IMG/VR virus record: IMGVR_UViG_3300045988_182320
Length of the DNA stretch: 39,937 bases
Direction: 5' to 3' (one strand)
From: a virus
Lineage: Duplodnaviria > Heunggongvirae > Uroviricota > Caudoviricetes
A program made the position numbers and the translations under genes. The notes beneath the pieces were generated by a model, which was not told where the DNA came from, made no database searches, and worked only from the letters and a program-made list of their open reading frames with translations. The first letter of the stretch is position 1; the number at the start of each line of letters is the position of its first letter. Of this stretch, positions 7,115 to 33,911 are shown one piece after another.

Positions 7115-7143
7115 TATAATAATGTATAAGGATAAAAAAACTT

Positions 7144-8227: not shown

Positions 8228-8247
8228 ATAGCTATGCAATTTTCGTG

Positions 8248-8369: not shown

Positions 8370-8620
8370 CTCTGTAACTAGCTGATAATCAATACTATTT
8401 TTGTGATACAATTTTCTGATACAGAAATTGTAACTCTTTAGCTTTTGTAACTTGGGGTTTTGTCGAGGTCGAAGACCTGTAGGAGAAGGGGCTTGTTACA
8501 AACTTGAAAAACTTTGTAACCGAGTTGTAACGCAACTTTGTAAACATCGGCATGGCGGCTTAACTCACTCTTTTTTAGTTATTTACATCTTTTGCTAACA
8601 TTATGTTACAGAGTTACAAA
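8370..8620. repeat. Iteron-like repeat cluster, candidate replication origin
   Basis: At least 8 copies of TTGTAAC / GTTACAA in about 250 bp (8371-8377, 8428-8434, 8445-8451, 8495-8501, 8514-8520, 8525-8531, 8605-8610, 8613-8619), including the inverted pair gttacaaa(8495-8502)/tttgtaac(8513-8520); next to the primase-helicase gene. Confidence 0.45.
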
Positions 8621-8764
8621 GGATTTGTATAAAATAAAAGAAAGGGGTGTGGGGAAAACGATGGCACGGGGCGTGAAGGAGGTTAGAAAAGGCCCATCGA
8701 GACACCCAGGACACCCCCATTGGCCAATGGAGGGGTAGCGAGACGAAACATCGCCCATGGCAAC

Positions 8765-8800
8765 GAAAAAAGGGAGCGACGGCCAATGCGCATCGCTCCC
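8765..8800 (-). terminator. Rho-independent terminator downstream of the primase-helicase gene
   Basis: Perfect 8-bp GC-rich stem gggagcga (8772-8779) / tcgctccc (8793-8800), followed on the minus strand by tttttt (plus aaaaaa 8766-8771). Confidence 0.55.
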
Positions 8801-8981
8801 TCGTAACATGGGAAAAGAATTATAAATCAGCAAAAATCTGCCTATGAAATCAGCCCTCGTCTGCTTGCAAAAATAGTGAAAAATTGCTTGAAAATTTAGC
8901 CGAAAATATTTGCATAATTCAGATATTTTTTGTACCTTTGCACTATAACTTGGGGCTATCTATTCTATTATATATGGATGG

Positions 8982-11963: not shown

Positions 11964-11971
11964 CAAAATTA
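11964..11971 (-). promoter_or_regulatory. Bacteroidota-type -7 promoter box for the primase-helicase gene
   Basis: caaaatta on plus strand (TAatTTTG on minus), 28 nt upstream of ATG 11936. Confidence 0.4.
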
Positions 11972-12104
11972 TTGCAAAGCGAGTTCAAAACAAAATACTT
12001 ATTTTTTGTCGCATAGAGCCTTTGGCTCATACTCGACGTATCTGTGGAGAGGGTGGCAGTATCTGCCATTGATGCAGTTGCTGCCATCCTCGCACTTTTG
12101 GCAT

Positions 12105-12606: not shown

Positions 12607-12812
12607 GATCCATCATTGATAATTTGCTCGATGACCTCTCTGTCGATGGCACGCCAAGTATTGGTGCGCATCTTATTGTAGATGGTGTTCTGGCTCATCT
12701 CTAGCTTTAGCTGCAGTGTGGCCATGAACTTGCTTCTCTTTTTGCGTGGTATCTCATTATACCATGCGAGGATGATATTTTCATCATCATTTTTTTTGTT
12801 TTTTTCTTGCAT
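12594..12812 (-). CDS. Hypothetical small basic protein, first gene of the leftward early operon (Cro-like by position)
   Basis: 72 aa, ATG at 12810-12812, transcribed divergently from the HTH regulator; -7 box at 12841-12848. Confidence 0.4.
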   Translation of the reverse strand: MQEKNKKNDDENIILAWYNEIPRKKRSKFMATLQLKLEMSQNTIYNKMRTNTWRAIDREVIEQIINDGSWEK

Positions 12813-12840
12813 ATTCCAATATTTATTATTAATTTTGTTG

Positions 12841-12848
12841 CAAAGTTA
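12841..12848 (-). promoter_or_regulatory. Bacteroidota-type -7 promoter box (leftward early promoter)
   Basis: caaagtta on plus strand (TAacTTTG on minus), 29 nt upstream of ATG 12812; a plus-strand TAatTTTG lies immediately adjacent at 12830-12837. Confidence 0.45.
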
Positions 12849-12933
12849 GTAATAAAAATCGGAAAATACTAACGAAAGTAAGTAAAAACACCTATGATAA
12901 TAGGTTAAATATTATTAATTAAATTAGGTAATT

Positions 12934-13311
12934 ATGTTTAATGGTCAGATAATCAGAAAGTTAATGTCGGATGCTGGCTTAACTAAAAAAGAGTTTGAAA
13001 GACGTATGTTCGGTAGTAAATCGACCGACCTCAACCATTTGGAAAAAGCGAAGAATCTTCGCAGTGACACTCTCGAACGTCTGCGTGAGGTGTTGAAGTG
13101 CTCTATGGATGACTTCTTTACAGCACCCTCATGGGCTGAGAACGGAAAGGGGACAGTCGTAGGCTCTAACAATGTGCTGTCAACAGTAGCCATCGGCAAC
13201 GAAGTGATGGAAGCCCAATATCTCAAGGAGTTGCTCTTGGAGAAGGACAAACGCATCAGCACTTTGGAAAATTATATCAAGCTTCTGGAGACTAACTTAA
13301 ATAAGGACTAA
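12934..13311 (+). CDS. XRE/Cro-CI-type helix-turn-helix transcriptional regulator (candidate repressor)
   Basis: 125 aa; N-terminal IIRKLMSDAGLTKKEFERRMFGS...SDTLERLREVL matches an HTH_XRE-like helix-turn-helix; divergent from the early operon and upstream of the integrase. Confidence 0.65.
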   Translation: MFNGQIIRKLMSDAGLTKKEFERRMFGSKSTDLNHLEKAKNLRSDTLERLREVLKCSMDDFFTAPSWAENGKGTVVGSNNVLSTVAIGNEVMEAQYLKELLLEKDKRISTLENYIKLLETNLNKD

Positions 13312-16688: not shown

Positions 16689-19600
16689 TTATTTGTTTGA
16701 CTTCATTTTTTGATATTGGCTCCATTGGCGGTCGAAGCCATCGGGGCCGGTGATGACCACGTATGACTTGATGCCAGCATCGAGCTGTTGGTTGAGTCGG
16801 TCGATGGTGTTATGCACGCTATCGAGGGATGCGCCCATCTGTTCGGTGTCGCCACCTGTGACGTTGACCACTGGGGCGACCACGGCTGCGCTGCCTGTGC
16901 CCATGGCACGGCTCACGTCTTGTGCGGTGAGCGAGGCGACAGTGTTGTTGCGCTGCGCCATATCGATGAGCTGCAGGGCAGGGAGGAGCTGAGGATTGTT
17001 GACGGCGTTGTGGTTGGCGACGAACTCGCCAGCGTGAACCACGCCAGCCTCTTTCTTGTAATTGCCAGGACCAGTGAAACCACCCTCGTAATAGCCAGCC
17101 GCCTCTGCCTGGTGCTGCTTTTTGATTGTTGCTATCTGGAGCATGCCCGCTGCGGTGGCGAGACCTGCGGCGATAGGACCAAGGATGTGACCCACCACTG
17201 GGATGGCTGCGGCTGATGAGTAGGCGTTGATGGCAGCCATGGCGGTTGAAGCTATGGCTTGTGCGATCTCTATCTTCATCGCCTTTTTGTTGGCCTTGCT
17301 CTTGGCTGCAGCCACCTCTTTGTCTCGCTTCGCCTCGAGTCGCTTTTTCTTGGCTGAGTTGTTGCCAGCGGCAGAAATCTGCTTATCGTAGTTTTTCTCG
17401 ATCTTGGCGACCTCTAGGTCTGAGCAGGCCTGAGAGTAGGCGGAGGCAGCGCCCATCATCGTGTTGATGCTGCTGAAGGCAGCGCCAGCGATGGAGGCTA
17501 TCTCTTGATAGGTCTCTTTGTTCATCTGCTTTTTGGCATCTAGATAAGCCTGTTCGCTGATGTTGCCATCTCTACGTAGCTTGTCTAGATTATCGTTGAC
17601 CATCTTTTGCTGTTGGATGGCTGCGATGGCACCACCTGCGATTGTGGCGAGGTTGTCGCTGCCCATGGCATTACTGTTGTCGCCGTTGCCCTTGGTCATC
17701 TTTTTGGCGGTGTCGAGGGCGGTGTTGGCATCCTCTTTGCGCTGCTCGTCGGCGGTAGGCTTGTATGAGGCGTATTTGTTGGCGATGCCCATCTTTGTGC
17801 GCTGGTATTCCTCCTCTCTGATGAGACCTGCCTTGTAGATGGCTTCGAGCCCCTGCAGCTCTAGTTGCATCTGCTCTTCGTTGCCGAGCTTGCCGTATTC
17901 TTGGCGCAGCTGAAGGAGTTGTTCGTCGTGTTGCTTCTGAAGGTCGTATTTGCGTTGCTGTTGGGTCAGCTCTCGCTCTTTCTCGATCTGGGCGTACTCG
18001 TCAGATGAGGAGAGGTAGAGGGCTTGCTTTTTGTTGAGATAGTCCTGGTATGAGAGAAAGAGAGCCTCGTTGACGGCATCCTCATTGTGATAGAGGTTGG
18101 AGTCTTTGTTGTAGTAGTCTGCATTGAGCTTCATTTCTTTTTTCTGTCGCTCGGTCTCCAGGGCTTCGAGGTCGGCGGTCTGCTTCTTCTCGTAGTCGGC
18201 GGCGATATTCTCTTTCTCGGCGCTCAATCGCTTGTACTCTTCGCTCTCTGCCTCGCCATACTTTTTGAGGATGTCGAGGCGAGCCTGAAGCCCCTGCTCT
18301 TTGATATTCTTCATCTTCTCGTTGTATTCGGCGAGTCGAATCTGCCCCGTAGCGTAGAGTGTCTTGGCATCTAGCTCTTCGGCTTGGTTGGCTTTCTTGG
18401 CATCGTCTAGCTCTTTTTTCATGTCGGCCTTGCGCTTTGCCTCTGCCTTGCGAGCCGCAGCCTCACGCTTCTTTTTCTCCTTCTCGGCAGCCTTGCGCTC
18501 TTTCTCGGTCATGGTATGACCAGAGGAAGGGGTGACGGGTGTCTCAGTAGTTGCGCTATTGTTTAGTAAATTCTTCTTTACAGTCTTGTTGTACTGTTTC
18601 TGTAAATTAACGTTTTTCTCTAATTGCTGATTATAGAAATTCTCTTCAGCATTGACTTTTTTTTGCAGGCTTAGGTTTGCCTGTAGTCTTTGCGTATGAA
18701 TTTGCTTTTGCTTCTCGTTGCTCTTCAGTGCCTCGTTTTGTTCGATGAGCTGACCTGTCCATCCATCAGCCACGGCATTGCTCTCATATTGCTTAGGATG
18801 AGCCTTGCGCTCAGCATCGACAGCCTTCAGAGAATATCGTATGCGGCTCTCTTTTTGTTTGAGTTTCAGTTTCTTTTTATTGATTTCCACTTTGCGTTCA
18901 TAGATAGCTTCTGCCATGGCAGCATTCTCTAGCTCCTTGATGTAGTTTTGGATGGCAATCTGATTGTCGTTATACAACTTGCCCTCTTTGGAGATAGAGG
19001 CGTGATATTCTGGGACGAGCTTTTGCATATTTGCGATAGCTTGCTTGCGCTCGTCAACGGTATAGGCATTGGAGTGGATAACCTTGTTGAGCATATCGAC
19101 CTTGTTGCGCTCATCGAGGGTAGCATCAGACACTTTTTTGGCGAGGCTGGCTTGAGCCTCTGCCACAGCTCTGTTGTTTTTAGCCTCTTGCGTGTTGTTG
19201 CGCATCGCCTCATTGTAAGATGTTATGGCTTTGTATGCCCCATAGGCAGCCACGCCCACAACGGTGATTACCGTGGCGAGGGCAGCCCATGGATTGGTGA
19301 GACTGGCTAGGCGTGCCGCCCTCATCACCACGATGTAGCCCTGTATGCCTTTTGTGAGATAAGCCCATGTGGCTTGCAGTGCCACTAAGGCAGCACGCAA
19401 AAGGGTAGAAGTTGCAGCACAAGCTTTATCGACAGCTGAAGCGTATTGCACAGCGGCAGATTTAATCTTAATAGCGATTGTCTCCTTGTACCAGAGAGTA
19501 GTACAAACAGCGATGGCTGTTGACAGCACGGCTATTTGTTTGGCATAGGTGACGGTGAAGGTGATGAGTGTGGACATGACCTTTATAGTCAGGCTGAACG

Positions 19601-21035
19601 ACGTGATGCCATATTTCATGGCAGGGATGAGTTTCTCGCCAAGTTCGATGGTGAGGTCTTGGAATCGCTTCTTGGCCTTGTCTAGCTCTGCCTGAACTGT
19701 TGTGTTTTGGGTGTTGAACTCATTGAGCACACTGGTACCATCGGCATAAGACTTGGTGGCGATGTCTTGTGCCTCCCTAACTTGGTCGAGGTGTGTAGCT
19801 ACGGCGGAGAGCACGCCCACGGCACGGGTACCGTTGAGCTGCATCTCTTCGAACATCGGTGCCATCTCTGTGAAACCTCCCTTCGACTTCATCGCTTGCA
19901 TGAACTTCATCAAGCCCTCGTTGGCGTTGGTCTTCATCAGGTTGGAGAACTCCTTGACCTGCATGCCCGCTATCTTGGCAAACTTGGCTGGCTCTTGGTA
20001 CATTTTTGTGATGAGCTGTGAGAAGACTGTGGCGGAAGTCGCCTCCTCTTGCATGTTTTGGTCGAGGGCAGAGGCGAGACCCATCAGCTGTGCCTGGGTC
20101 ATGCCGGCCTGGATGCCGACACCTGAGAGGTCGGCGGTGAAATCGACGATGTAGCCAGCGTTTGCAGATGAGCTTTGTGCCAGCTCATTGACGGCGGAAC
20201 CTGTGGCGAGCATCGCACCACGAAGGCCTTTGGTCTTATCCTCACCAAACATCTGGGCGAGCTTGCCGATTTTATCGACCGCCCCCTTGCCGAGGTCATC
20301 GCCGAGGGCGACATTGATTTTGTCGGCACCATCAACGAACTCCTCGATCATCTCTTTGCTGGTGATGCCGAGGCGACCGGCAGAGCCAGCCAGCTCGTTG
20401 AGCTGCTCACGAGCTGTGCGGGTATCCATGCGCTTGAAGTCCTCGTTCATCTGATGAACCTGTTCGTCGGTCTGACCGGTGTATTTGCGCACGTCTGCCA
20501 TCGACTCCTCCATGTCGGCATAGGCTTGGGCTGCAGCTCTCAAAGTAAGAGTGAGTGTGGTGAGACTGCCCAGTATCTGGGTGAAGGCACCCCAGTTTTT
20601 GTTAAGACCATCCCACATTCTAGAGAACAAACTTCTGGAAGCTTTACCTTCGTCGTTGATGTGCTGCATCTCTGCTCGCACTTGCTTTAATTGCTTTTGC
20701 AGTTTTTTCCATTCGTCTGAGTTGCGCTTGATGGCACCGCTTTTCAACTCTCTGTTGAGAGCCTTGGCGACTAGTTGCAGCTCCTTGTATGATGCAGAAG
20801 AAAGATTGTTGAGAACTTGGTTAACCTTCTCTTGGCTAGTCATGTATGCTTTTGTCTCAGCCTTTAATCTCTTTATCTGTCGTTCGAGGGCTGTTGTTGA
20901 CTCGCCCTTAGCATAAGCCTCGTCTCTGGCTTTTTGCACTTCTTTCAGCTTGTTTTGCAATTCGTTGAGTTTATCCTTAGCCTCTTTGGTGTCAAGAATA
21001 ACTCTGCTAACATGGGTATCTGTATTTGTTGCCAT
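16689..21035 (-). CDS. Tail tape measure protein (putative)
   Basis: 1448 aa; long K/E/A/Q-rich coiled-coil stretches, central hydrophobic segments, Gly-rich C-terminal region (GGFTGPGNY...GVVHAGEFV); ATG at 21033-21035. Confidence 0.7.
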   Translation of the reverse strand: MATNTDTHVSRVILDTKEAKDKLNELQNKLKEVQKARDEAYAKGESTTALERQIKRLKAETKAYMTSQEKVNQVLNNLSSASYKELQLVAKALNRELKSGAIKRNSDEWKKLQKQLKQVRAEMQHINDEGKASRSLFSRMWDGLNKNWGAFTQILGSLTTLTLTLRAAAQAYADMEESMADVRKYTGQTDEQVHQMNEDFKRMDTRTAREQLNELAGSAGRLGITSKEMIEEFVDGADKINVALGDDLGKGAVDKIGKLAQMFGEDKTKGLRGAMLATGSAVNELAQSSSANAGYIVDFTADLSGVGIQAGMTQAQLMGLASALDQNMQEEATSATVFSQLITKMYQEPAKFAKIAGMQVKEFSNLMKTNANEGLMKFMQAMKSKGGFTEMAPMFEEMQLNGTRAVGVLSAVATHLDQVREAQDIATKSYADGTSVLNEFNTQNTTVQAELDKAKKRFQDLTIELGEKLIPAMKYGITSFSLTIKVMSTLITFTVTYAKQIAVLSTAIAVCTTLWYKETIAIKIKSAAVQYASAVDKACAATSTLLRAALVALQATWAYLTKGIQGYIVVMRAARLASLTNPWAALATVITVVGVAAYGAYKAITSYNEAMRNNTQEAKNNRAVAEAQASLAKKVSDATLDERNKVDMLNKVIHSNAYTVDERKQAIANMQKLVPEYHASISKEGKLYNDNQIAIQNYIKELENAAMAEAIYERKVEINKKKLKLKQKESRIRYSLKAVDAERKAHPKQYESNAVADGWTGQLIEQNEALKSNEKQKQIHTQRLQANLSLQKKVNAEENFYNQQLEKNVNLQKQYNKTVKKNLLNNSATTETPVTPSSGHTMTEKERKAAEKEKKKREAAARKAEAKRKADMKKELDDAKKANQAEELDAKTLYATGQIRLAEYNEKMKNIKEQGLQARLDILKKYGEAESEEYKRLSAEKENIAADYEKKQTADLEALETERQKKEMKLNADYYNKDSNLYHNEDAVNEALFLSYQDYLNKKQALYLSSSDEYAQIEKERELTQQQRKYDLQKQHDEQLLQLRQEYGKLGNEEQMQLELQGLEAIYKAGLIREEEYQRTKMGIANKYASYKPTADEQRKEDANTALDTAKKMTKGNGDNSNAMGSDNLATIAGGAIAAIQQQKMVNDNLDKLRRDGNISEQAYLDAKKQMNKETYQEIASIAGAAFSSINTMMGAASAYSQACSDLEVAKIEKNYDKQISAAGNNSAKKKRLEAKRDKEVAAAKSKANKKAMKIEIAQAIASTAMAAINAYSSAAAIPVVGHILGPIAAGLATAAGMLQIATIKKQHQAEAAGYYEGGFTGPGNYKKEAGVVHAGEFVANHNAVNNPQLLPALQLIDMAQRNNTVASLTAQDVSRAMGTGSAAVVAPVVNVTGGDTEQMGASLDSVHNTIDRLNQQLDAGIKSYVVITGPDGFDRQWSQYQKMKSNK

Positions 21036-21065: not shown

Positions 21066-21080
21066 ATAAGGAGGAAAATA

Positions 21081-21119
21081 TAATAAAAATACGAGACCGT
21101 ATGTATTGCGGTCTCGTAT
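21081..21119 (-). terminator. Rho-independent terminator
   Basis: Perfect 11-bp stem atacgagaccg (21089-21099) / cggtctcgtat (21109-21119), 9-nt loop, followed on the minus strand by tttttatta. Confidence 0.6.
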
Positions 21120-21461
21120 TTACTTGGTTATCTCTTGCTCTTTTTTAAAGAACTCGTATGCAAGATTGTTTGCATCCCAAACAAGATATTTCTTGTTGGT
21201 GTTTCTGAGTGTCTGTTTATCACCTGTTATGGAGTTTGCTATCGTGACGCAGAAGAATCTGCCTCGCTTTACGATTTCGGTTGCCGTATTGTTTGGCGAT
21301 GCCAGTCTTATAGGCTCGTCAAAATTCTCATCAAAAGTATCAAACAATGGTTCGGAAGCCACTGTGGCTGGGCAAGAACTATTGCCAAGCTTGTCGAGAC
21401 CTTTGAGGAGTGCAACTGTTATAATCGCTAGTATCCAGCATCCAAATATAGTCGTAATCAT
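21120..21461 (-). CDS. Small membrane protein (hypothetical)
   Basis: Start placed at ATG 21459-21461 (MITTIFGCWILAIITVALL..., N-terminal hydrophobic helix); the track ORF extends further upstream across a -7 box at 21491-21498. Confidence 0.4.
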   Translation of the reverse strand: MITTIFGCWILAIITVALLKGLDKLGNSSCPATVASEPLFDTFDENFDEPIRLASPNNTATEIVKRGRFFCVTIANSITGDKQTLRNTNKKYLVWDANNLAYEFFKKEQEITK

Positions 21462-21490
21462 AATTTGCAAGTTTATTATTATCTTTGTTG

Positions 21491-21498
21491 CAAATTTA
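21491..21498 (-). promoter_or_regulatory. Bacteroidota-type -7 promoter box
   Basis: caaattta on plus strand (TAaaTTTG on minus), 30 nt upstream of ATG 21461. Confidence 0.4.
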
Positions 21499-21683
21499 AT
21501 AATAATATTTGGAATATGCAAGTATTTTGTGTTAAATCTTTGATTTGTTTTGCGGTATGGTGGAAAAATATTATATTTGCAGTGGCAATTTAATTTTAGA
21601 AAGTATGAATAAAGATTTTGCTTTAATATTGGTAAACATAATATGCGCCTTAACGGCATTTGTTTGTATGATAATCACTATTG

Positions 21684-22040
21684 TTATTTCATTAGTGAGA
21701 TTATAATAGTAATACACATAGATGCGATTGTAATAATCGTGCAAATGATATTGATATATTCTTTGTATTCTTTCAGAAGTGTCAGTCTCTCCTGTCTTCT
21801 CTTCTGTTTGTTATAGCCTTTCTTGGCAGCATTCTCCCCTTGTGGTGTCAGCTTATAATAAGCTTCTCCCCACTCATAAACAAGTCCCTCGTCTTGAAGT
21901 GATTGTAGAACATCGTATGGCTCAATGTCATATCCATACGTATCATTTATAGCACTGTGTACATCGTCTTTGTTAGGACTACCTTCTAAGAACTGGCTTA
22001 AAATGAAATCTGCGATTTCTATTTGCTTTTTAGTCATCAT
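21684..22040 (-). CDS. Hypothetical tail-anchored membrane protein
   Basis: About 118 aa from ATG (MMTKKQIEIADF...), C-terminal hydrophobic helix IICTIITIASMCITIIISL; the track ORF starts with GTG at 22124 and would run through an upstream hairpin. Confidence 0.4.
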   Translation of the reverse strand: MMTKKQIEIADFILSQFLEGSPNKDDVHSAINDTYGYDIEPYDVLQSLQDEGLVYEWGEAYYKLTPQGENAAKKGYNKQKRRQERLTLLKEYKEYINIICTIITIASMCITIIISLMK

Positions 22041-22092
22041 AATCAAATAAAAACGGCTCGTGCATCGGGAGGGCAGTCCTTCAGCACGAGCC
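22041..22092 (-). terminator. Hairpin + T-run (terminator or leader attenuator)
   Basis: Perfect 9-bp stem ggctcgtgc (22055-22063) / gcacgagcc (22084-22092), 20-nt loop, followed on the minus strand by tttttatttg, just before ATG 22040. Confidence 0.5.
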
Positions 22093-22175
22093 ATTAACAG
22101 CTGTATATCTTTATGTCTTGCCACTCATGAGACCTGCCCGAATCATGTTTGACATCATTGTCTTTAAATATGGTG

Positions 22176-22183
22176 CAAAGATA
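22176..22183 (-). promoter_or_regulatory. Bacteroidota-type -7 promoter box
   Basis: caaagata on plus strand (TAtcTTTG on minus), upstream of the 22055-22092 hairpin and of ATG 22040. Confidence 0.4.
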
Positions 22184-22864: not shown

Positions 22865-23290
22865 TTATGCGATGTCTTTGTATTCGTCGATGGCATTGAA
22901 GCAAGGACACATCTTCTTCCATTTGGACTTGTCCTTGCCCCAGATGTCACGATGGCCCATTATCTGGGCATCTGGGAATTGTTGCTTCAGTTTGTGGAGT
23001 AGCAAAACGAGGGCGTCTTTTTGCTCTGGTGTGCGGTTGTCGATAGCCTTGCCCTTAGCGTCGATGCCACCGATATAGGCGACGTTGATGGCTGTGGAGT
23101 TGTAGCCCTGCACGCCGTTGCTCACCTTTTCGATGGCTAGGAGTTGGTGGATGCCGCCGTTTGGGGCGATGACGTAGTGATAACCTGGATTGGTCCAGCC
23201 CTTGCGGCGGAACTCTGCCTTGAGGTCGTCGATGGACTGGCTTTGCGACCCTGCGGTGCAGTGAACGAAAATGCGTTTAATCTGTCTCAT
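22865..23290 (-). CDS. N-acetylmuramoyl-L-alanine amidase, T7-lysozyme/PGRP-like (endolysin)
   Basis: IFVHCTAG...GWTNPGYHYVI...GYNSTAINVAYIGGIDAKGK...TPEQ...HRDI...KMCPCF closely parallels the conserved blocks of T7 lysozyme (Amidase_2 family); start placed at ATG 23288-23290. Confidence 0.9.
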   Translation of the reverse strand: MRQIKRIFVHCTAGSQSQSIDDLKAEFRRKGWTNPGYHYVIAPNGGIHQLLAIEKVSNGVQGYNSTAINVAYIGGIDAKGKAIDNRTPEQKDALVLLLHKLKQQFPDAQIMGHRDIWGKDKSKWKKMCPCFNAIDEYKDIA

Positions 23291-23531
23291 TATTTTGCTT
23301 GTTATGATTGAACAATTTGTTTTTGATGTTGTTGAACTTGGCATCGATGGCGATGGCTACGCCGAAGATGGAGCCGGCATACATGAGCGACTGGGCAAAG
23401 TACCAGAGCACATTGTCGGTGACATCACGAGCCTGGGAGGTGAAGTAACTGATGTAAACCAGTATGATGGCGAGGAGGAGCACGGCGATGGCTGAGCCGT
23501 ATTGTATCCATTCTTTAGTATTTCTCTGCAT
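23277..23531 (-). CDS. Putative holin
   Basis: 84 aa from ATG 23529-23531 (MQRNTKEW...), two predicted TM helices and a charged C-terminal tail; overlaps the amidase start by 14 nt. Confidence 0.5.
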   Translation of the reverse strand: MQRNTKEWIQYGSAIAVLLLAIILVYISYFTSQARDVTDNVLWYFAQSLMYAGSIFGVAIAIDAKFNNIKNKLFNHNKQNNETD

Positions 23532-23580: not shown

Positions 23581-23617
23581 ATAATAAAAATACGAGACCG
23601 CCCTAACGATCTCGTAT
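23581..23617 (-). terminator. Rho-independent terminator
   Basis: Stem atacgaga (23590-23597) / tctcgtat (23610-23617), 12-nt loop, followed on the minus strand by ttttt; shares an identical 20-mer with the terminator at 21080-21099. Confidence 0.5.
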
Positions 23618-23631
23618 TATATGTTTAACTG

Positions 23632-24045: not shown

Positions 24046-25620
24046 TCACGTGAATTTATAGAACTTCTTTTTGAATTTATTGTGAAGCTCTGCGACCACG
24101 GTGGAGAAGGGTAGCTCATCACGACAGAAGTCGTTGAGGGCTTGGTCTATCAAGATCTTGGAGCCTGTATAGAGGTAGTGCTCCAGAGGTTGCCATACCT
24201 CGGTGCCGTCTGGCTCCAGGTGGTCGATGATGCGATAGCGTAGGGAGAGGCGCTTCTTGGGCACCTCTTTGGTGACCATGTGGGTGGAGCCGTCCGGGGC
24301 GGTCTCCTCTTGCTGGATGGTCTCCTTCTCTATCACCGAGTCATCGACCTTGTAGTCTATCACTTGAACGAGGAACTTGTTCTCGTCCTGACCCTCACGG
24401 CAGATGATGTCCTCGATGGACTGCTGCTGTGATTTCTCCATACCGTCAAAAGGCACGCGCGCACGGCGAGCCTTGACGAGTTTACCGAATCTTTCCATAC
24501 CGATTTTCTTATATAAGTTTTTAGAGTTTGCGTGGATGCCCAGACCTAGGCGAGAGGCTGCCTTGAGCTGTATCTGGCGGTCTGTGAAGCCCGCCTTGCG
24601 TAAGTTGGCGATCTGTCTGCAGAGGTCGTGCTTGAACCGCTTGCGCAACAGGGCGTGGTCGGCGTAGATGATCTGACCGCAGAAGTCGATGCCATCGCAG
24701 GTGCGGTGGATACCCCAAGACTTATTGATGGATAGGTGCCAGTCACGGGCGAGGTGCATCACGGCAAGCTCTGCCATCAGCCTGAGGAACACCTTATCCT
24801 CGTGGAGGATGTAGATGTTGTCCATGAAGCGGTAATAATGGCGAAGACCTTGGCGGCAGAAGCGCTCGAACCTATCGTTGAGCGACTTCACTCCCCCGCA
24901 TAGCAGTTGAGCTTGCTGCTGAGTGCGACAGGTAACGAGCATGTCGATCACGTAGCGAGCCTGCCAGTAACGGAACTTGTCGGTGTCTTGGAGAATGTCG
25001 AAGCATCGGAGTGCCAGGTAATCGAAGCGGGCGAGGAAGAGCTGACCCAAGAGTTGGGCGAGCTTGACGCCGAGCACGATGCCTGGATTGAAGCTATCGA
25101 CCACCTCGTCGATGAAGGCGAGGAGCTTGCGGTCTTTGATCTTGCGGCGATATTCACTTTTGAGAAGAGCGTGGTCTATGCTCTGAAAATAATGGTGAAT
25201 ATCCATGGGCAAGCAGTAGAAGGTATCTTGCTGTGGCGAGTTGAAGATGTCTCGCTTGACAAGATTATAGAAATAATGGGTGCCCTTGCCCTTGGAACCA
25301 GCCGGACTGTGGCTGTAGAGTGTCTTGCGAAGGTTATCCTCTACAGGTTGCAGGGCAGCGTGCTGGATGACGTGGTCGATAACGGGCAGCTTGTTGACTT
25401 GGCGATGTTTTGGATAGTCGATATCTTTGGCGACATAGGCTGAGGTATGCCAAGTTTGTTGGGTGTAAGCATCGAGCATGCGTCCGATGTTATGGTCTAG
25501 GTTTGCCTCGAATTTTTGGACCGCACGGCGAGACATCTTTTGTCGGGCGTAGTCATAGAATGCCCGACGAAAGTTGTCTAGTGTCTCGACCTGTGGCGAT
25601 ATGTTGCCAAACCTTTTCAT
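24046..25620 (-). CDS. Reverse transcriptase of a diversity-generating retroelement
   Basis: RT motif A LPMDIHHYFQSIDH; motif B-like GIVLGVKLAQLLGQLFL; motif C position reads YYRFMDNIYIL (non-canonical); primer-grip-like DFCGQII; adjacent to the TR/VR pair. Start placed at first ATG 25618-25620; the track ORF begins with GTG at 25689. Confidence 0.8.
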   Translation of the reverse strand: MKRFGNISPQVETLDNFRRAFYDYARQKMSRRAVQKFEANLDHNIGRMLDAYTQQTWHTSAYVAKDIDYPKHRQVNKLPVIDHVIQHAALQPVEDNLRKTLYSHSPAGSKGKGTHYFYNLVKRDIFNSPQQDTFYCLPMDIHHYFQSIDHALLKSEYRRKIKDRKLLAFIDEVVDSFNPGIVLGVKLAQLLGQLFLARFDYLALRCFDILQDTDKFRYWQARYVIDMLVTCRTQQQAQLLCGGVKSLNDRFERFCRQGLRHYYRFMDNIYILHEDKVFLRLMAELAVMHLARDWHLSINKSWGIHRTCDGIDFCGQIIYADHALLRKRFKHDLCRQIANLRKAGFTDRQIQLKAASRLGLGIHANSKNLYKKIGMERFGKLVKARRARVPFDGMEKSQQQSIEDIICREGQDENKFLVQVIDYKVDDSVIEKETIQQEETAPDGSTHMVTKEVPKKRLSLRYRIIDHLEPDGTEVWQPLEHYLYTGSKILIDQALNDFCRDELPFSTVVAELHNKFKKKFYKFT

Positions 25621-25828
25621 AAGCGGTGTAATGTCTGTGTTGAACGGTGTATAAACTGTGTATAGTCTGAATCGTCTGCTTTTGTACACTTGATAACCTT
25701 CGACCGGATGACCGTGTTGTCATCATCTACCAGCTGTCTTATTAATGTGTATGTATCGCCATGGGGCGAGGATTGACCCTGTAATCTCGAAGTGGGAGCA
25801 AACGACCCACGAAGAGATATGTCTGTAA

Positions 25829-25950
25829 GTTGAGGGCGGCGCCGTAGTTCACATTGGCATTCGAGACAGCATTGTTCACGTTGAGCGTCGAAAGACCGCA
25901 TTGACCACCATTGTTAGCGTTAGCACCACGAAGGCAGACACGAAAACCGG
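25829..25950 (-). repeat. DGR template repeat (TR)
   Basis: 122-nt intergenic copy of the target gene 3' region; 110/122 identical to VR; every mismatch is a plus-strand T in TR, i.e. a coding-strand adenine; the same-frame translation carries Asn (AAC) where the VR varies. Confidence 0.85.
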
Positions 25951-25984
25951 CACCTAGGGTCACACCCTGGTATCATAACCGCCG

Positions 25985-25992
25985 CAAAGGTA
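25985..25992 (-). promoter_or_regulatory. Bacteroidota-type -7 promoter box upstream of the TR
   Basis: caaaggta on plus strand (TAccTTTG on minus), about 35 nt upstream of the 5' end of the TR in the direction of TR-RT transcription. Confidence 0.45.
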
Positions 25993-26188
25993 ATAAAAAT
26001 AATCGGTATGGAAGCATGTCAAAGAGCTTTTTTGATGTTTTTATTGATATTTTTTTTGTCGCCGACCGCCACAGGCGGTAACTTAAGGCGAGCTACGCTC
26101 GCTGGGTGCTTCGGCTTCGCCGAGGGTGCTCAGGTCTCTTTTGCACACCCAGTAAACCGATGCACACCCAGCAAACTGATGTAGTCTT

Positions 26189-27661
26189 TTAGGCCGCCTC
26201 GTAATACACGGGTTCAACGGACCACTCGGATGCTGCTTCGCAGAGGGCGGCGCCGTAGTTCACATAGGCAAACGAGACAGCACCGTTCACGTTGAGCGCC
26301 GAAAGACCGCAAGGACCACCATTGTCAGCGCTAGCACCACGAAGGCAGACACGAAAACCGGATGTAGCGCCGCTAGTATTCCAGAAATAGCTAGTCCAAT
26401 AGGTTGACTCGGATGCGCCCGTGGCGGTCGGGAAGTTCTCCAGATGCTCCATCGAGAGCGTCTTGATAAAGCCTTCGCCCTTGGTCGGCGAGGTGCTGTA
26501 AGCCACCATGCCATCGGCGGAACCTATCGTCCACGTGCCGTAGATGGACGGTGCCACGAGATGGGTCACGGAAGTGTCCTCGTTGCAACGCACCTGCTCG
26601 TCATCCATGTGTCGCCACAATAAGCCGAAGCCATTTTTGTAGCCGAAGAAGGATGGTATCTTGGCGGTATAGACCACGGTGCCATCGTCTTTTTTGACCT
26701 CGTAGCTCGCCTCGCCGCAAGCGTCGCCCAGCTCGATGCCGGCAGACATCGGCACGATAGGGCGATAGCCGTTGTAACCACCCCAATCAGGCATCTGTGT
26801 CACGCCAGCTCCGAGACCACCCTGGTAGAGACCGTTGGCATCTTTTTGGCTGTTGATGGCATCCTGGTCGTAGTGGGTGCCGAAGATGACCCCGAAGAGC
26901 ACGGCGATGGCAGAGGTGTGGCGCATGGTGGTGCAGAGCCAGCCTGTACCATTCTTGCGGGCTGCGGCACGCCAGTATTCGGTAGTCTGGTTGGTGGCAG
27001 CCTTGCCCAGCATGGTGCGGTTGGTGTTATCTAACGTTGAGTCGTTGTTGCCGCCTCGGTAGTCTGTGCCCTCGTTGATGTAGCTCACCAGCTTGCCTGT
27101 GCTGCGCTCTAGCGTGGCGAAGCCAGCGGCGGAGATGCTGCCCACAGGTATCTTGTAGTTGTACTCGCCAGGTATTGGCGTAGGGCTGACCATCTCGTAA
27201 TGGAGTCTGCCCACGGTCTTGATGACCATGTACCACTCCTTGCCCCAGCCCCACTGGTAATGCCCCTCTGAGCCATCGAGCTTGGCTGTCTCGCCGGTGG
27301 CATACTTGTGGTGGTCTTTGGAGTCGAGCTTGCGACGGGAGTGGTCATTCTTGACCAGATAACAGCCCAGACCCAGCTCCGTTGGTAGGGTCTGCAGTAA
27401 CTCTAGCGAGCCCACATAAGTGGCGGCTTTAGGGGTTGCATTGTCGAGGTTCCACACTCGACCACACCAAGGATGCTGTCCCATTTGGACGGCGCTTTTG
27501 AGCGACATCTGCTCAGACCTGCCGGATTTTTTGTCGAAGACCTCGACAATCTTGTCAGTGGCGCTCATGTCTGACTGTGGGAGGTCGTCAACCTGTTGAC
27601 CTCCATCGAAAGCGGCTATGATAGCCTTGAGCTTACTCTCTTCTTCTGATGTTAATGCCAT
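26189..27661 (-). CDS. DGR target protein (putative receptor-binding tail fibre) with C-terminal variable region
   Basis: About 490 aa from ATG 27659-27661 (MALTSEEES...; track ORF starts with TTG at 27709); C-terminus ...GFRVCLRGASADNGGPCGLSALNVNGAVSFAYVNYGAAL is encoded by the VR; stop tta at 26189-26191. Confidence 0.8.
   Translation of the reverse strand: MALTSEEESKLKAIIAAFDGGQQVDDLPQSDMSATDKIVEVFDKKSGRSEQMSLKSAVQMGQHPWCGRVWNLDNATPKAATYVGSLELLQTLPTELGLGCYLVKNDHSRRKLDSKDHHKYATGETAKLDGSEGHYQWGWGKEWYMVIKTVGRLHYEMVSPTPIPGEYNYKIPVGSISAAGFATLERSTGKLVSYINEGTDYRGGNNDSTLDNTNRTMLGKAATNQTTEYWRAAARKNGTGWLCTTMRHTSAIAVLFGVIFGTHYDQDAINSQKDANGLYQGGLGAGVTQMPDWGGYNGYRPIVPMSAGIELGDACGEASYEVKKDDGTVVYTAKIPSFFGYKNGFGLLWRHMDDEQVRCNEDTSVTHLVAPSIYGTWTIGSADGMVAYSTSPTKGEGFIKTLSMEHLENFPTATGASESTYWTSYFWNTSGATSGFRVCLRGASADNGGPCGLSALNVNGAVSFAYVNYGAALCEAASEWSVEPVYYEAA
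26240..26361 (-). repeat. DGR variable repeat (VR)
   Basis: 122 nt inside the last ~57 codons of the target gene; differs from TR only at 12 positions corresponding to TR adenines (TR 25830, 25831, 25855, 25860, 25861, 25872, 25873, 25888, 25901, 25902, 25915, 25920). Confidence 0.85.
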
Positions 27662-27683
27662 AATAAAAATTATATTTAATCGA

Positions 27684-28448
27684 TTAAACAATGCGTAATT
27701 TATCACCAACTTTTCTAAGCTTGCCCGATGCCGACAGGCGAAGGCGAGGCTGGCGCACGGTGATGCTGACCTCTTGCCAGAGCGGTGTGTTGGCGGTGGG
27801 GATGACCCAGAACTTGGTGGTGCCCTCGCCCTTGATGATGAGGTTGCCGCTTGGGTCTGCCACGAGCGAGTCGCCCTCGGCTCGCTGGAAGAGCACGCTC
27901 TGAGGGAGGTAGCTCGGCAGGATCTGCACGGCGATGCGCTGAGCCACCTTGTTGCGTAGGCTTATCTCGGGGAGATAGGTCAGGTTCATGCGAGCTGGCG
28001 CGATGAAGCCTGTGGTTATCTGAGCGGCGAGACCATCCATCTGCGCTATCTTGGCATCGGCTCGCTTGGATGCCGCGTCAGCCTCTGCAGCCTTGGTCTC
28101 TGCCAAGGCTGCCTGTGATGCTGCAGCCTCGCCCTGCTCGCCAGCCGCCTTGGCTGCGCTCTGGGCGAGGTTAGCCGCCTTGTTGGCATCGTCGGCCGCA
28201 CCCTGCGCTCTGACGGTCGGTGTCTTGTCGAGCCACAAGCGCCACTTGGCGTTGGTATCTGAAGGAGTCGTCGTGTTGCCATCCTCTAGGGAGGCGAAGA
28301 CTCCTGACGATGTGTGAACGATGTCGCCCTCGTCGTAGCCCTTGACGGTCTGGCCATCCTCATCTTGATAGGAGTAGCCCGACTGCCAGGTGCCCTGGTC
28401 GGTGAAGGCGACATTGCCCACGATAATGATGTTTGTGTTATCTGCCAT
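27684..28448 (-). CDS. Hypothetical protein (tail-fibre region), Ala-rich central coiled coil
   Basis: 254 aa, ATG at 28446-28448. Confidence 0.45.
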   Translation of the reverse strand: MADNTNIIIVGNVAFTDQGTWQSGYSYQDEDGQTVKGYDEGDIVHTSSGVFASLEDGNTTTPSDTNAKWRLWLDKTPTVRAQGAADDANKAANLAQSAAKAAGEQGEAAASQAALAETKAAEADAASKRADAKIAQMDGLAAQITTGFIAPARMNLTYLPEISLRNKVAQRIAVQILPSYLPQSVLFQRAEGDSLVADPSGNLIIKGEGTTKFWVIPTANTPLWQEVSITVRQPRLRLSASGKLRKVGDKLRIV

Positions 28449-29920: not shown

Positions 29921-32900
29921 TTAATATGCGTGGTTCAGCTTGCGCGCTGTGTATTTGGTCGTGTAGTCACTCACCTTGTTGCCCATGGTTGAGTTATAGA
30001 CCAGCAGGAACGTCGCACTTTCGCCCTGTCCCATCTCTATGTAATCTTTGTTGCCGCAGTTCTCATCGAGAATCAAAGGTAACTCCTCTTTGTTCCATGC
30101 GTAGGAATCGCTTTTGTCTTTGATCTTGTTGCGCCCATAAATGAAGAAGTATGTCGTGCCTGGCTCAGCGACCACCGTAAATGTCACGGCGAAGTTGGTA
30201 GATGAGCCACAGCCTAATGCGCTGCGCACCTCAGACAGTGTTGGCAGCGTTATGCCGCTTGACGAGACGTAGCTGTAGATGAGCCAGACGTTATTCTCAG
30301 AAATCTTGGCATAGCCATTATAGATGGTGTTTTTTGTGCTAAGCGCACATCTGCTATACTTATATCCACCTATCCATCCATTGAGTACGCCATTGCCAGC
30401 ACCTGTGAAAGCAAAATTATAGGCACCGTTTTTAGCCGAGAGTATGGCTGCGATATTGTAACCAAGCCCCCACCAGTCGCTGCTGTCCTCATTTTCGAAT
30501 CGAGCCACCGCACGCTGTCCTGATGACGCTGGTAGTACGTTGCCACCGATGCCCGCAAAGCATTTATGGGTATCGTTGCGAAATATGATGTATGCATCAT
30601 TGGTAAATGGGTCGTTTGTCAGACCCGTGCCCTGGATAGTGAATCCAGCGATCTTGCCCGCCAATGCCTCCATGGAGCCATCTTTGTTGATTTTGAAATT
30701 GCTGTTGGCCGTGACCACACCGTTAAGGTTGATTTGGTCTGCCGTGATGGTGGCAGAGGAGATGCCGTTGGCAATCATTGTCTTGATGGTAGCCTCGGAT
30801 AGAATCTTGCCATCGACACCCTCGATTTTTGTAGTCAGCGCATTGTAGTCTGCCGTCACAAGCAAGCCACCTTTGTTTTTGAGCGTGCCATCGGCATTGA
30901 ATCGCTCGCTCATCAGGGCGTTGTAGTCAGCGGTGGTGATAAGATAGCTCGTATCTTTGAGCTTGCCATTGGCATCGAAACGAGCAACTGCCGAAGACCA
31001 CGAATCGGCGTTTTGACTGACCAACGATATAGTCGGACCATAATCGTTGCGTATGTCTGAGCCTACGCTGTCGGCGTGTCTCCTGGCTTCGGCAACGGAA
31101 CTGTTGAGGGCATTGTAGTTGTCAGACATAGTCCCTTGCAAAGTGTTTTTGGCTGCATTCAGCTCGTCTTTTGTCGCAGCCTTGCCCACCGTGGTATTGA
31201 TGCCATTGACCGTTATATTTAACTCAGCGAGTGCCGCCTTGGTGCCGTTGGCAGTATTGGTGACGCTCTCGACACGTGCAGTGATGCTGTCGATGTCGGT
31301 GTAGATGCCAGAAATTTTCTCGTTTGTTCTATCCTGCCAGGTGTTGATGAGGTCGATGCGACCTGCCTCTATCTCTATTCTTGACGAGAGTGTTGTGTTG
31401 AGTTCGCCGTATCTCTTATCGACATATAGGCGTATTGCCTCTTTCTCAGCGTCCAGCTCGATGCCGAGCTGAGTTGTGGTACCATTGACCTTGTCGATGT
31501 TTTGTCCCAGCAGCTTGATGTTTTTGGCCGTCTGAAGTATTTGTGTCGAGACGGTCTTGCTCAGGTTGTCGAGCGGCTCGTCGGTGATGGTGAGCAGCGC
31601 GACGTAGATGTCTTCTGTATATCGGAGCACGAAGTCGCCGGTGCCATTCCACTTGCCATTTAGCTCTACCGTCTGCCACTCTGCCGAGTATGGCACGCTG
31701 ACGCTCTGGGCTGACAGGTCGTTGGTCTTGCCTTCGACAGCCTTGCAACCCTCGAAGCCAAAGGTGAGGGTGCCAGCAGTCTTGGCGTAGATGCGAGCAC
31801 TTATATATAAGGTGTCTTGCACCTCGGTGTAGTCATCGCCAGTGGTGTTCATGCCATCCTCGCCTTTTTCTGCCGATGGCTGGGTATATTCCTTGTGGGT
31901 ACCGGGTTTGCGGATGAGATCATTGGCTTGTTTGATGCCGCTGTCCTGTATGTGCAGCATGTTGCGACCCTCGTTGTTGTCGATGCTCACTCGGTGGTTG
32001 CCACTCACGGTGGCGGCACCATTGACCATGACAGGTAAGCCATTGGCATCGACCCAGAACTGGGACTCGTCTGTATCGTCGATGGTCCAGCCATCAATGA
32101 GCTGCTCATCGTTATAGCCTATCGCCGTCAGAAACTGACCGTTATGGAGGTAGTTGTTCTCCTCTGTCGCCTCGTAGGAGGTCTGTGCGAAGCGGGTGGC
32201 GAACTGGTTCTGCAGCATCTGTATTTTGGTGTCGATGCTCTCACCTGTGCGGCGGAGCACGAAGTCGCCCGTGGCGTAGAGGTTCTGCAGGAACTCACCG
32301 AAGCCTGATAGTGCACCGAAGAGTGGATGGGTGATGCCCCGTAAGTTGCCGAGGCGACCTTTGAGCGCATTGTCTGGGTCTGTCTTGAGACCATAGATGA
32401 TGTCCATGTAGGGCGTATCGCTGCCCACAGTCATCATCTGTATGATGCCCTTGCGGTCGGGGTCGGTGAGGTTGTCGACCCTAACAAAAGTGTCTCGCTT
32501 GGTGATGAGCTGCTCTGCGGTGGCACCCTCCATCGATGAGGTGAAGTTCTTGAACTTGACCCATGCTTGCATATCCTCGCCACTGCCCTCGCTGCCCACC
32601 TCTGTCACGATAAGCTCGTATCGCTTGTTGACATAGTGATTGTTTTCGGTGGAGGGCATGCCATTGTACTGCTGCACCATCACGTAGTCATCCTTGCGGA
32701 ATGGGTTGTACATCCTGCCCTCGTGGGTGTCGAGATAGACCCTGCCTGTCTCTGGATCGTAGTGGTCAACCTCTAGCATCGCCGTGAAGATGCGGTTGTC
32801 ATTCTCGCCCAAGAGTTGGGAGATAATCATCTCGAAGATGCGCATGGTACCACGCACGATGAGATTATCGAGCTCTAGACCATACCTATTCTCTTGCACC

Positions 32901-33400
32901 CCGGCAGCGTTGGTCGTGGGGTTGTTGGCGAGTCGCCAGCCCTTGCCATCGAGGAAGCCCGAGACGAAGTCGGGAGAGCCTATGGTATCGTCAAAACGAG
33001 CAGCGCCCTTGACGTGCAGCGCACTGACTGTCGCCAAGCCCCACGCCAGGATCTCTTCGATGCAAAGCTTGTAACCCCCATTCTCTTTTGTGGCGAGGCA
33101 GAAGCCTTTTTGACCAGCCTCGGAGTAGTCATCAGTGGCGATGGAGTGGGCGATGATGTCGCCCTCTTTGGAGAAAGAAAAGAGGTTGCCTATCTTGATG
33201 CCCTTGAGAAAGGTGATGAGCCCATGGGCTGTATCGTCGTTGATGGCGGAGAGTTTATCGTTGTCAGCAGAGGAAGCATAGTCGAGCAGGGACAGGAAGG
33301 CGTTGCCAATGCGGCTTGCCGTATTGGCGTGCTTGACTCTCTCGTCACGGATGCCCTCGAAAGCCTCTCTGATTTTGTTGATGTCTTTATTTTCTGCCAT
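29921..33400 (-). CDS. Large tail fibre / host-specificity-like structural protein (putative)
   Basis: 1159 aa; G/N/T/S-rich repetitive beta-like segments and a central coiled-coil region; position within the tail-fibre block; ATG at 33398-33400. Confidence 0.5.
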   Translation of the reverse strand: MAENKDINKIREAFEGIRDERVKHANTASRIGNAFLSLLDYASSADNDKLSAINDDTAHGLITFLKGIKIGNLFSFSKEGDIIAHSIATDDYSEAGQKGFCLATKENGGYKLCIEEILAWGLATVSALHVKGAARFDDTIGSPDFVSGFLDGKGWRLANNPTTNAAGVQENRYGLELDNLIVRGTMRIFEMIISQLLGENDNRIFTAMLEVDHYDPETGRVYLDTHEGRMYNPFRKDDYVMVQQYNGMPSTENNHYVNKRYELIVTEVGSEGSGEDMQAWVKFKNFTSSMEGATAEQLITKRDTFVRVDNLTDPDRKGIIQMMTVGSDTPYMDIIYGLKTDPDNALKGRLGNLRGITHPLFGALSGFGEFLQNLYATGDFVLRRTGESIDTKIQMLQNQFATRFAQTSYEATEENNYLHNGQFLTAIGYNDEQLIDGWTIDDTDESQFWVDANGLPVMVNGAATVSGNHRVSIDNNEGRNMLHIQDSGIKQANDLIRKPGTHKEYTQPSAEKGEDGMNTTGDDYTEVQDTLYISARIYAKTAGTLTFGFEGCKAVEGKTNDLSAQSVSVPYSAEWQTVELNGKWNGTGDFVLRYTEDIYVALLTITDEPLDNLSKTVSTQILQTAKNIKLLGQNIDKVNGTTTQLGIELDAEKEAIRLYVDKRYGELNTTLSSRIEIEAGRIDLINTWQDRTNEKISGIYTDIDSITARVESVTNTANGTKAALAELNITVNGINTTVGKAATKDELNAAKNTLQGTMSDNYNALNSSVAEARRHADSVGSDIRNDYGPTISLVSQNADSWSSAVARFDANGKLKDTSYLITTADYNALMSERFNADGTLKNKGGLLVTADYNALTTKIEGVDGKILSEATIKTMIANGISSATITADQINLNGVVTANSNFKINKDGSMEALAGKIAGFTIQGTGLTNDPFTNDAYIIFRNDTHKCFAGIGGNVLPASSGQRAVARFENEDSSDWWGLGYNIAAILSAKNGAYNFAFTGAGNGVLNGWIGGYKYSRCALSTKNTIYNGYAKISENNVWLIYSYVSSSGITLPTLSEVRSALGCGSSTNFAVTFTVVAEPGTTYFFIYGRNKIKDKSDSYAWNKEELPLILDENCGNKDYIEMGQGESATFLLVYNSTMGNKVSDYTTKYTARKLNHAY

Positions 33401-33416
33401 ATTTTTTATTTTGATG

Positions 33417-33424
33417 CAAAGATA
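33417..33424 (-). promoter_or_regulatory. Bacteroidota-type -7 promoter box
   Basis: caaagata on plus strand (TAtcTTTG on minus), 17 nt upstream of ATG 33400. Confidence 0.4.
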
Positions 33425-33452
33425 GGTATGATGAGAACTATATAAAAATACG

Positions 33453-33911
33453 CTAGATCGGTGTGCCGAACATCTGCTTGAAGATGTCTGCCATCAGTCC
33501 CTGGTACTCATCGCCATAGAAGTAGCCCTCCATGTCGTTGAGCTTCATGATGGAGGCGTAGTACTTGCGATTGAACCATGGACGGCGCTGTCGTGGCTCG
33601 CCGAGGTTGTGCTTGGCACGGTACTCAGGGTCGAGGAACTCTAGGTCGCCGGGGTTGCCATGGTAATAGCCATTGCCTGTGCCCGTCTCTTGGTAGAGAC
33701 CGTAGAGCAGGAACTTGTGGGCTATCTGGCGAGAGGAACCGCCAAAGGATGTGGCTTGGACAGAGCTGAAGAGGGCACCGGTATGTCGGATGCGATAGTG
33801 GATGATTTTCTCTTTCCAGATATGCACCATCTCCTCTGCCCATCCTCGCTCGTAGGCGTAGATGTCCTCTTGTGAGACGGGTTGCTTGATGTCATTCGTT
33901 CCATTCCTCAT
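33453..33911 (-). CDS. Hypothetical protein
   Basis: 152 aa ORF in the minus-strand structural operon. Confidence 0.4.
   Translation of the reverse strand: MRNGTNDIKQPVSQEDIYAYERGWAEEMVHIWKEKIIHYRIRHTGALFSSVQATSFGGSSRQIAHKFLLYGLYQETGTGNGYYHGNPGDLEFLDPEYRAKHNLGEPRQRRPWFNRKYYASIMKLNDMEGYFYGDEYQGLMADIFKQMFGTPI

Follow-up and report, generated by a model that had tools for sequence, protein, structure and literature searches.

The window, by which we mean the entire stretch of 39,937 nucleotides analysed here, appears to represent most of a temperate, siphovirus-type phage that carries a diversity-generating retroelement (DGR), as judged from a gene content that includes a tape measure protein, an amidase, a tail protein, a head protease, an integrase, and a CI-like HTH protein. 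A megablast search against deposited phages returned one partial, unannotated match only. Given that nearly all long ORFs are encoded on the minus strand, the sites described below were read on that strand. Within the window, the 20-mer ATAATAAAAATACGAGACCG occurs exactly twice, at positions 21080-21099 and 23581-23600, as had been noted in a first-pass annotation of the sequence; the two copies are identical, no third match exists at three or fewer mismatches, and none was obtained in 100 shuffles. Both copies form the 3′ arm and T-run of minus-strand hairpins, termed A and B hereafter. That annotation had also paired these hairpins and described them as differing in their loops, which is indeed the case (CAAUACAUA in A vs UUAGGG in B), and both are strongly folded (z -7.1 and -6.8, respectively). 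The 20-mer itself is composed of the hairpin 3′ arm (CGGTCTC followed by GTA...), a putative promoter 10-mer, and TAT, with 10 of its 20 bases corresponding to GTATTTTTAT on the minus strand.

Hairpin A (21087-21121, minus strand) includes 13 bp with a predicted folding energy of -18.3 kcal/mol, and is formed by a 5′ arm AAAUACGAGACCG (21121-21109), the loop (21108-21100), and a 3′ arm CGGUCUCGUAUUU (21099-21087). The first bases of the hairpin fall within the TAA stop codon (21122-21120) of a 113-aa gene, and its 3′ arm is followed by UUAUUAU and then by a 17-nt spacer leading to a -7 box, TACCTTTG (21065-21058). The candidate promoter element of this site (21083-21092, minus strand) overlaps the last 6 nt of the hairpin 3′ arm and supplies the U-tract, while the -7 box lies 17 nt past the 10-mer and 22 nt ahead of the ATG of the tape measure gene (16689-21035, minus strand, 1448 aa), the first gene after site A.

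Hairpin B (23589-23618, minus strand; 12-13 bp including one G·U, -17.2 kcal/mol) is similarly formed by a 5′ arm AAUACGAGAUCG, the loop at 23606-23601, and a 3′ arm CGGUCUCGUAUU, the stem including one U·G pair. The hairpin starts 13 nt past the TAA (23634-23632) of a 135-aa gene which itself follows the DGR reverse transcriptase. The 3′ arm is followed by UUUAUUAU, then by the spacer and the box, with the 10-mer at 23584-23593 and the -7 box TATCTTTG at 23566-23559, both on the minus strand, so that each copy of the 20-mer is followed by a -7 box as initially reported. Site B lies ahead of the lysis genes, all on the minus strand, namely a small holin-like membrane protein (23277-23531), an amidase/endolysin (22865-23344), and a DUF6549 protein. 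This block, including the holin-like, amidase, and DUF6549 genes, the 113-aa gene, and the tape measure gene, is syntenic from A to B in all relatives.

The DGR found upstream of site B is complete (24046-27709, minus strand). On this strand, it includes a reverse transcriptase (24046-25689), a template repeat (25832-25950), and a variable repeat (26243-26361) located at the 3′ end of a tail protein gene (26189-27709). The two repeats differ at ten positions, each of them an adenine in the template. The only Rfam match was an RT-17 RNA (25672-25773, 59.9 bits) which belongs to the DGR, and no match was obtained at the hairpins.

Other features in the vicinity of these sites include a 146-aa ORF (21684-22124) with its own -7 box (22176-22183). 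It was detected only in the three closest relatives of the window (L002, L006, and L017), is absent from other family members, and can be considered moron-like given this restricted distribution. The neighboring ORF call at 21120-21659 is probably over-extended, as the conserved gene starts at an ATG at 21461 and positions 21462-21683 are AT-rich promoter DNA. Two -7 boxes facing each other (TATCTTTG on the plus strand and TAAATTTG on the minus strand) are included in a 51-nt element present in two copies with 82-83% identity, one at 21472-21522, ahead of the gene for the 113-aa membrane protein that precedes hairpin A, and one at 12806-12856, between the CI-like HTH gene (12934-13311, plus strand) and leftward small genes. 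This element forms an island of 80-96% identity within 30-50% identical DNA in relatives, and looks like an operator or divergent-promoter element common to the immunity region and the accessory gene. Finally, an AT-rich region of ~740 nt (8240-8981) without long ORF or Rfam match includes TAnnTTTG boxes on both strands (8248, 8309, 8346, 8396, 8868, and 8933), and could correspond to an origin of replication, a regulatory region, or an ncRNA region.

Across the window, four copies of GTATTTTTAT were found for 0.03 expected; all of them are on the minus strand, with a TAnnTTTG box located exactly 17 nt downstream in each case. The copy at site C (promoter 38780-38814) includes the 10-mer at 38814-38805 and, after 17 nt, TATCTTTG at 38787-38780, and is associated with a third hairpin (38810-38842, minus strand; -19.8 kcal/mol, z -6.3). 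The sequence of its stem, AUACCUGGUUGUC/GACAAUCAGGUAU, is unrelated to that of A and B, and its base is again AUAC/GUAU. Site C is followed by a 353-aa gene (37695-38756, minus strand). The fourth copy, site D (33417-33451, minus strand), displays the same GTATTTTTAT, 17 nt, and TATCTTTG without a hairpin (fold z -1.6), the upstream stop codon being located 2 nt before the 10-mer; it precedes a 1159-aa gene (29921-33400, minus strand), with tail genes next. A one-mismatch copy, GTTTTTTTAT, is likewise found 17 nt from TATCTTTG at site L (7107-7141, minus strand), also without a hairpin (z -0.7), ahead of the gene for the head maturation protease (6058-7083, minus strand). In total, the window thus includes three units with both hairpin and promoter and two with the promoter only. 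The boxes at 21058, 23559, 38780, 33417, and 7107 are each directly followed by a C and located 22-23 nt ahead of an ATG, which defines a candidate promoter class as GT(A/T)TTTTTAT, exactly 17 nt, TA(T)CTTTGC, ~20-25 nt, and ATG. The corresponding five operons start with the head protease gene, the 353-aa gene, the 1159-aa gene, the lysis genes, and the tape measure gene. The operons after sites C and D are large and presumed structural, several genes downstream of both sites being without annotation, and we refer to this promoter class as “late” based on the function of the genes it would control.

The first-pass annotation had suggested that the arrangement seen at A and B recurs at 38801-38787 and around 4266, and that insulated transcription units were built from a shared sequence module. 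The former location corresponds to site C, where the hairpin, T-run, and box are all present, while sites D and L had been overlooked. Around 4266, the hairpin (4238-4268, minus strand; -23.1 kcal/mol) stands alone: it is followed by a weak tail, TTGTTCTTTT, lies between the genes at 4323-4919 and 3463-4206, and comes with neither a TAnnTTTG box nor GTATTTTTAT, the local CAAAGG reading as CCACCTTTG on the minus strand. This hairpin falls outside of the module family, and might function in the head operon either as an attenuator or in RNA stability. As for the shared module, the sense-strand succession of hairpin, T-run, and promoter at operon boundaries was recovered, but the stems vary from one site to the next, and what all sites share appears to be the promoter element GTATTTTTAT at a fixed distance of 17 nt, and not mainly a terminator. 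The observation is hence real and its initial interpretation partly supported, i.e., right in outline with the repeated part mis-assigned.

To evaluate the conservation of this signature, relatives were gathered through protein homology sets based on the amidase (which covers both A and B), the 1159-aa protein, the 353-aa protein, and the protease, and these sets are free of motif bias. Across the five operon starts, a -7 box close to the start codon was found in 120 distinct upstream regions, and all but one of these (119/120) included GT[AT]TTTTT[AG]T exactly 17 nt upstream of the box. The 10-mer is kept in relatives with or without a hairpin, and its information content reaches ~2 bits at each position, compared to 0.0-0.9 in the spacer and flanks. 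An exact search of IMG/VR for the 20-mer yielded 30 loci from a single phage family with conserved gene order, a set which is biased by the query. In a pattern scan of bacterial genomes, the only genome contigs with homologues of window proteins among the matches listed were four prophage-like contigs (L142, L143, L179, and L203), all from Prevotella metagenome-assembled genomes, which suggests that the host is likely Prevotella. One of these contigs (L179) encodes an integrase homologue beside the genes for the tape measure and the 632-aa protein, the same arrangement as in the window. On one Prevotella contig, the motif is found directly upstream of a tape measure gene whose product is just 42% identical, indicating that the motif predates most of the similarity between the protein sequences. 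It was also matched exactly, if sporadically, in other Bacteroidota genomes among the matches listed, and may hence not be phage-specific. A literature search on the motif string and on Prevotella phage late promoters retrieved no description of this motif.

Unlike the 10-mer, hairpins are optional, with three designs observed across sites and lineages. In the first one, the stem is fused to the promoter (ATAC...GTAT), whose first four bases close the helix and are followed by the T-run, and at least five unrelated stem sequences were found in this configuration. In the second, a separate terminator-like structure with its own T-run precedes the 10-mer, e.g., AGCCATCGAAT...ATTCGATGGCTTTTTTTATG followed by GTATTTTTAT before the tape measure gene in L035. 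In the third, found for sites D and L in every relative, there is no hairpin. Because hairpins A and B begin 0-13 nt after stop codons and are located upstream of the promoter, they belong to the upstream transcript. The U-tract directly follows the GUA of the stem base and is interrupted by an A (UUUUUAUUAU in A and B, UUUUUAUUUU in C), and the stems are only ~45-50% G+C. A simple terminator scan displayed no overall excess of candidates over shuffles, and only the three long stems stood out.

Sequence variation in relatives provides information on the molecule that folds. Orthologues of site C are 99.3% paired, with 6 of the 13 pairs changed on both sides, a score that none of 500 shuffles reached; when the partner is shifted by one to three columns, pairing falls to 30-54%. 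The loops at this site are GNRA-like (GTGA, GCGA, and GCAA). In the A/B stem family, every departure is a 5′-arm A-to-G or C-to-U transition which results in G·U on the sense RNA and in C·A on the other strand, and for hairpin B the predicted folding energy is -17.2 kcal/mol on the sense strand vs -12.2 on the antisense strand. No true compensatory change was observed in this family, however, so that pairing at A and B could be explained by relatedness alone. Overall, the covariation at C and the exclusively G·U-compatible changes at A and B point to a structure formed by the sense-strand RNA, which would fit an intrinsic terminator. Conversely, these palindromes could act at the DNA level, as sites for dimeric regulators, cruciforms, or recombination sites, and the fact that the inverted repeats abut the promoter in a possible operator position, the recombination breakpoint inside module B, and the inversion of the loop in one lineage (both described below) would be in line with such a role. 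We consider this highly improbable, as pairing persists even though stem sequences from different sites and lineages are unrelated, which is the opposite of what a protein-binding site would display, the mismatches are G·U-compatible on the sense strand only, the loops are GNRA-like, and sites D and L are palindrome-free in all relatives. A restriction-site meaning for the GGTCTC/GAGACC found in the stem was also considered and rejected, since these sequences are not avoided elsewhere (23 and 26 copies vs 13 and 7 expected).

The 10 bases that complete the 20-mer beyond the promoter element are common to A and B only within the window. The corresponding stem, CGAG(A/G)(C/U)CG / CGGUCUCG (CGAG/CGGTCTCG), was found at A, B, or C depending on the lineage: most lineages have it at site A, the clade of the window and one other have it at site B, and L325, whose site A includes another stem, has it at site C. 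This distribution suggests that the cassette moves between promoter sites. Module B also includes a clear breakpoint, as identity between the window and L054 drops from ~96% on the left (over the 700 nt up to the motif) to ~77% on the right, while L054 and L041 are ~72% identical on the left and ~99% on the right. When site A was compared across six relatives, the hairpin stood out in four of them as an island of 69-93% identity, with an upstream gene of poor conservation on one side and a tape measure gene of moderate conservation on the other (40-58% amino acid identity for the 113-aa gene vs 75-85% for the tape measure protein). In the other two, L083 and L035, identity at this site is 27-31%, and a different stem or a separate terminator is found instead. 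The loop of hairpin A was also found in two orientations, TTTGCTTTA vs its reverse complement TAAAGCAAA (L075 and L020 vs L004 and L084), with unchanged arms, which is consistent with an inversion through the inverted-repeat arms.

Based on these comparisons, we conclude that the two 20-mers are most probably identical as a result of paralogy, which recombination in the conserved promoter element has maintained. An alternative scenario in which these repeats are the ends of a recently inserted 2.5-kb lysis and accessory cassette, i.e., a target duplication or moron boundaries, could be envisioned as the direct 20-nt repeats flank a block of lower G+C content (0.43 in 20-22 kb) and the gene at 21684-22124 is confined to the window’s own clade. 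Yet the repeat is already accounted for by the promoter element and the paralogous stem, and synteny from the holin to the tape measure gene is found in all relatives, including those with a different B hairpin or none, which refutes a recent insertion and leaves this scenario with next to no likelihood.

Taken together, these results would best be explained by a single minus-strand promoter class starting all structural and lysis operons, with hairpins fused to it at some boundaries, a reading to which we assign a probability of roughly three in four. At boundaries A, B, and C, the upstream transcript would end in an RNA hairpin directly fused to the promoter. The base of the stem would consist of the GTAT of the 10-mer paired with an ATAC located upstream, and the T5 run of the 10-mer would provide the U-tract for intrinsic termination. 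Transcription arriving from upstream would then be stopped within a few bases of the point at which the next unit is initiated. Terminator and promoter activities are both inferred here from sequence, and the units resemble a “terminate-then-reinitiate” arrangement given that a hairpin with a T-run is found directly upstream of a Bacteroidota promoter at operon boundaries. Site A is preceded by a small accessory gene that encodes a membrane protein and has its own conserved promoter, and site B by the DGR, also with its own promoter; both could plausibly be expressed outside of the late program, in which case the hairpins would keep their transcription out of the lysis and tail genes, where read-through would presumably be harmful. 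Under this same reading, recombination in the conserved element would have copied the paralogous hairpin-promoter cassette, or exchanged it, from one promoter site to another and from one genome to another.

The 10-mer is placed where the -33 element of Bacteroidota promoters is expected, and this raises the question of how it is recognized. Promoters used by sigma-ABfr, the primary sigma factor of Bacteroidota, display TTTG at -33 and TAnnTTTG at -7 with a variable spacer (PMC7366714). In the five late-type sites, TTTG is absent at about -33 and TTTTTAT occupies this position, whereas a likely early promoter (11964-11998) includes GTATTTTGTT, which contains TTTG. The loss of this canonical element relative to the published consensus would be expected if the 10-mer was the site for a dedicated phage-encoded late factor, either an activator or a protein modifying or replacing sigma, that substitutes for the host -33 contact, leaves these promoters silent in the lysogen, restricts their firing to the late stage, and makes hairpins secondary. 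This possibility, which would refine the main reading and which we regard as tentative, is also suggested by the ten near-invariant consecutive positions with fixed spacing, across five operons and deep divergence, which exceed a usual sigma -35-type element, and by the apparently temperate nature of the phage (integrase, CI-like HTH), as a constitutively strong promoter for holin-like and endolysin genes should kill the lysogen. It is less easily reconciled with the results of PHROGs and Pfam searches, in which no phage sigma factor, activator, or other candidate regulator was identified among the larger minus-strand ORFs and the plus-strand integrase and CI-like ORF, with the Bacteroides phage promoter P_BfP1E6 being strongly constitutive in uninfected cells (10.1101/2025.03.18.644028), or with the sporadic occurrence of the 35-nt pattern in non-phage Bacteroidota DNA among the matches listed. 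By analogy, a candidate late factor bound to GT(A/T)TTTTTAT might re-target the Bacteroidota RNA polymerase in a MotA-like “sigma appropriation”, fused hairpins having evolved to insulate these factor-dependent promoters, although we would consider this speculative.

Alternatively, and with a similar weight in our assessment, the 10-mer could be an optimal -33 or proximal UP-type element for the host primary sigma factor, with timing set elsewhere, e.g., through a repressor cascade or genome copy number, and the identity between A and B a functionless by-product of descent or gene conversion. The T-run is indeed found where TTTG would be expected, with a gap of 19-20 nt to the -7 box, and strong activity of phage promoters that include UP elements is known in uninfected Bacteroides (10.1101/2025.03.18.644028). 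About half of the genome matches to the pattern are from Bacteroidota among the matches listed, several of these being intergenic. This possibility must nevertheless contend with the remaining -7 boxes of the window, none of which includes the 10-mer. One of them drives the DGR template region, two are found ahead of small accessory genes, and others lie beside the CI-like repressor gene; they include the DGR promoter (25985-25992), the one at 22176-22183, and the CI-proximal one (12841-12848). In addition, the invariant G-27, T-26, and A-19 are without counterpart in the published consensus, and a constitutive expression of holin and endolysin would be incompatible with lysogeny. A scan for sigma-70-type promoters, i.e., the wrong promoter type for this host, was uninformative in 1-30000, and yielded 14 hits in 30000-39937, nominally above a shuffle mean of 6.8 (sd 2.8).

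To our knowledge, the transcription signals of phages infecting Prevotella and other Bacteroidota are almost unstudied. GT(A/T)TTTTTAT-N17-TAnnTTTGC represents a simple and testable signature marking each structural and lysis operon start in a large family of gut phages. It could aid operon annotation in related metagenomic phages and guide the search for a factor timing late expression, and the modules could provide compact terminator-promoter parts for Prevotella and Bacteroides engineering. From an evolutionary standpoint, terminators would have been welded onto this promoter signature, with the resulting module acting as a crossover point in mosaic evolution. The arrangement is ordinary phage gene regulation of an expected kind and entails no new mechanism; its main value lies in a sharp promoter signature and a clear case of module-mediated mosaicism.

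These modules can be compared to several known systems. As in intrinsic (Rho-independent) terminators, a stable sense-strand stem-loop is found after a stop codon and followed by a T-run, with an upstream A-run pairing with the first Us. They differ from typical ones in that the U-tract is interrupted and doubles as promoter DNA, stems are ~45-50% G+C, and function is predicted. In T4 middle promoters, a MotA box is found in place of the -35 element. The late-type sites would be similar, under the hypothesis of a dedicated late factor, in that the host-type downstream element is kept while the upstream element is a phage-class-specific motif at a fixed distance; unlike in T4, however, no MotA- or AsiA-like proteins were identified here. 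Compared to sigma-ABfr promoters, the late-type sites include the same perfect TAnnTTTG followed by a C, a T-rich element ~19-20 nt upstream, and short leaders, but this element is a 10-nt, near-invariant GT(A/T)TTTTTAT without the G of TTTG, and the spacing is fixed whereas the published one is variable.

A more extensive parallel can be drawn with the PeSLs (promoter-early stem-loops) of T4-like phages, in which a stem-loop shown to terminate transcription is located directly upstream of a conserved promoter, and which form cassettes repeated through the genome that insulate units and serve as recombination linkers, the crossovers being located within the stem-loop or next to it (PMC2839356, PMC4122927). 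The phage described here is temperate and siphovirus-like vs a T4-like myovirus, infects a host from another phylum, and relies on a Bacteroidota -7/-33 promoter architecture vs sigma-70 -10/-35. Its modules head structural and lysis operons, whereas PeSLs are associated with early ORFans in hyperplastic regions, and it is only here that the U-tract and the promoter upstream element are the same bases and that the hairpin is optional. Mini-circles and experimentally established activity likewise belong to PeSLs, the activity of the present modules being predicted. Nevertheless, a stem-loop and a conserved promoter are combined in a single intergenic unit repeated in the genome in both cases, and the breakpoint inside module B as well as the presence of the same stem at different sites in different lineages are reminiscent of the PeSL recombination linkers. 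PeSLs are thus the closest described parallel to the modules reported here, which would work alike without being members of the same family.
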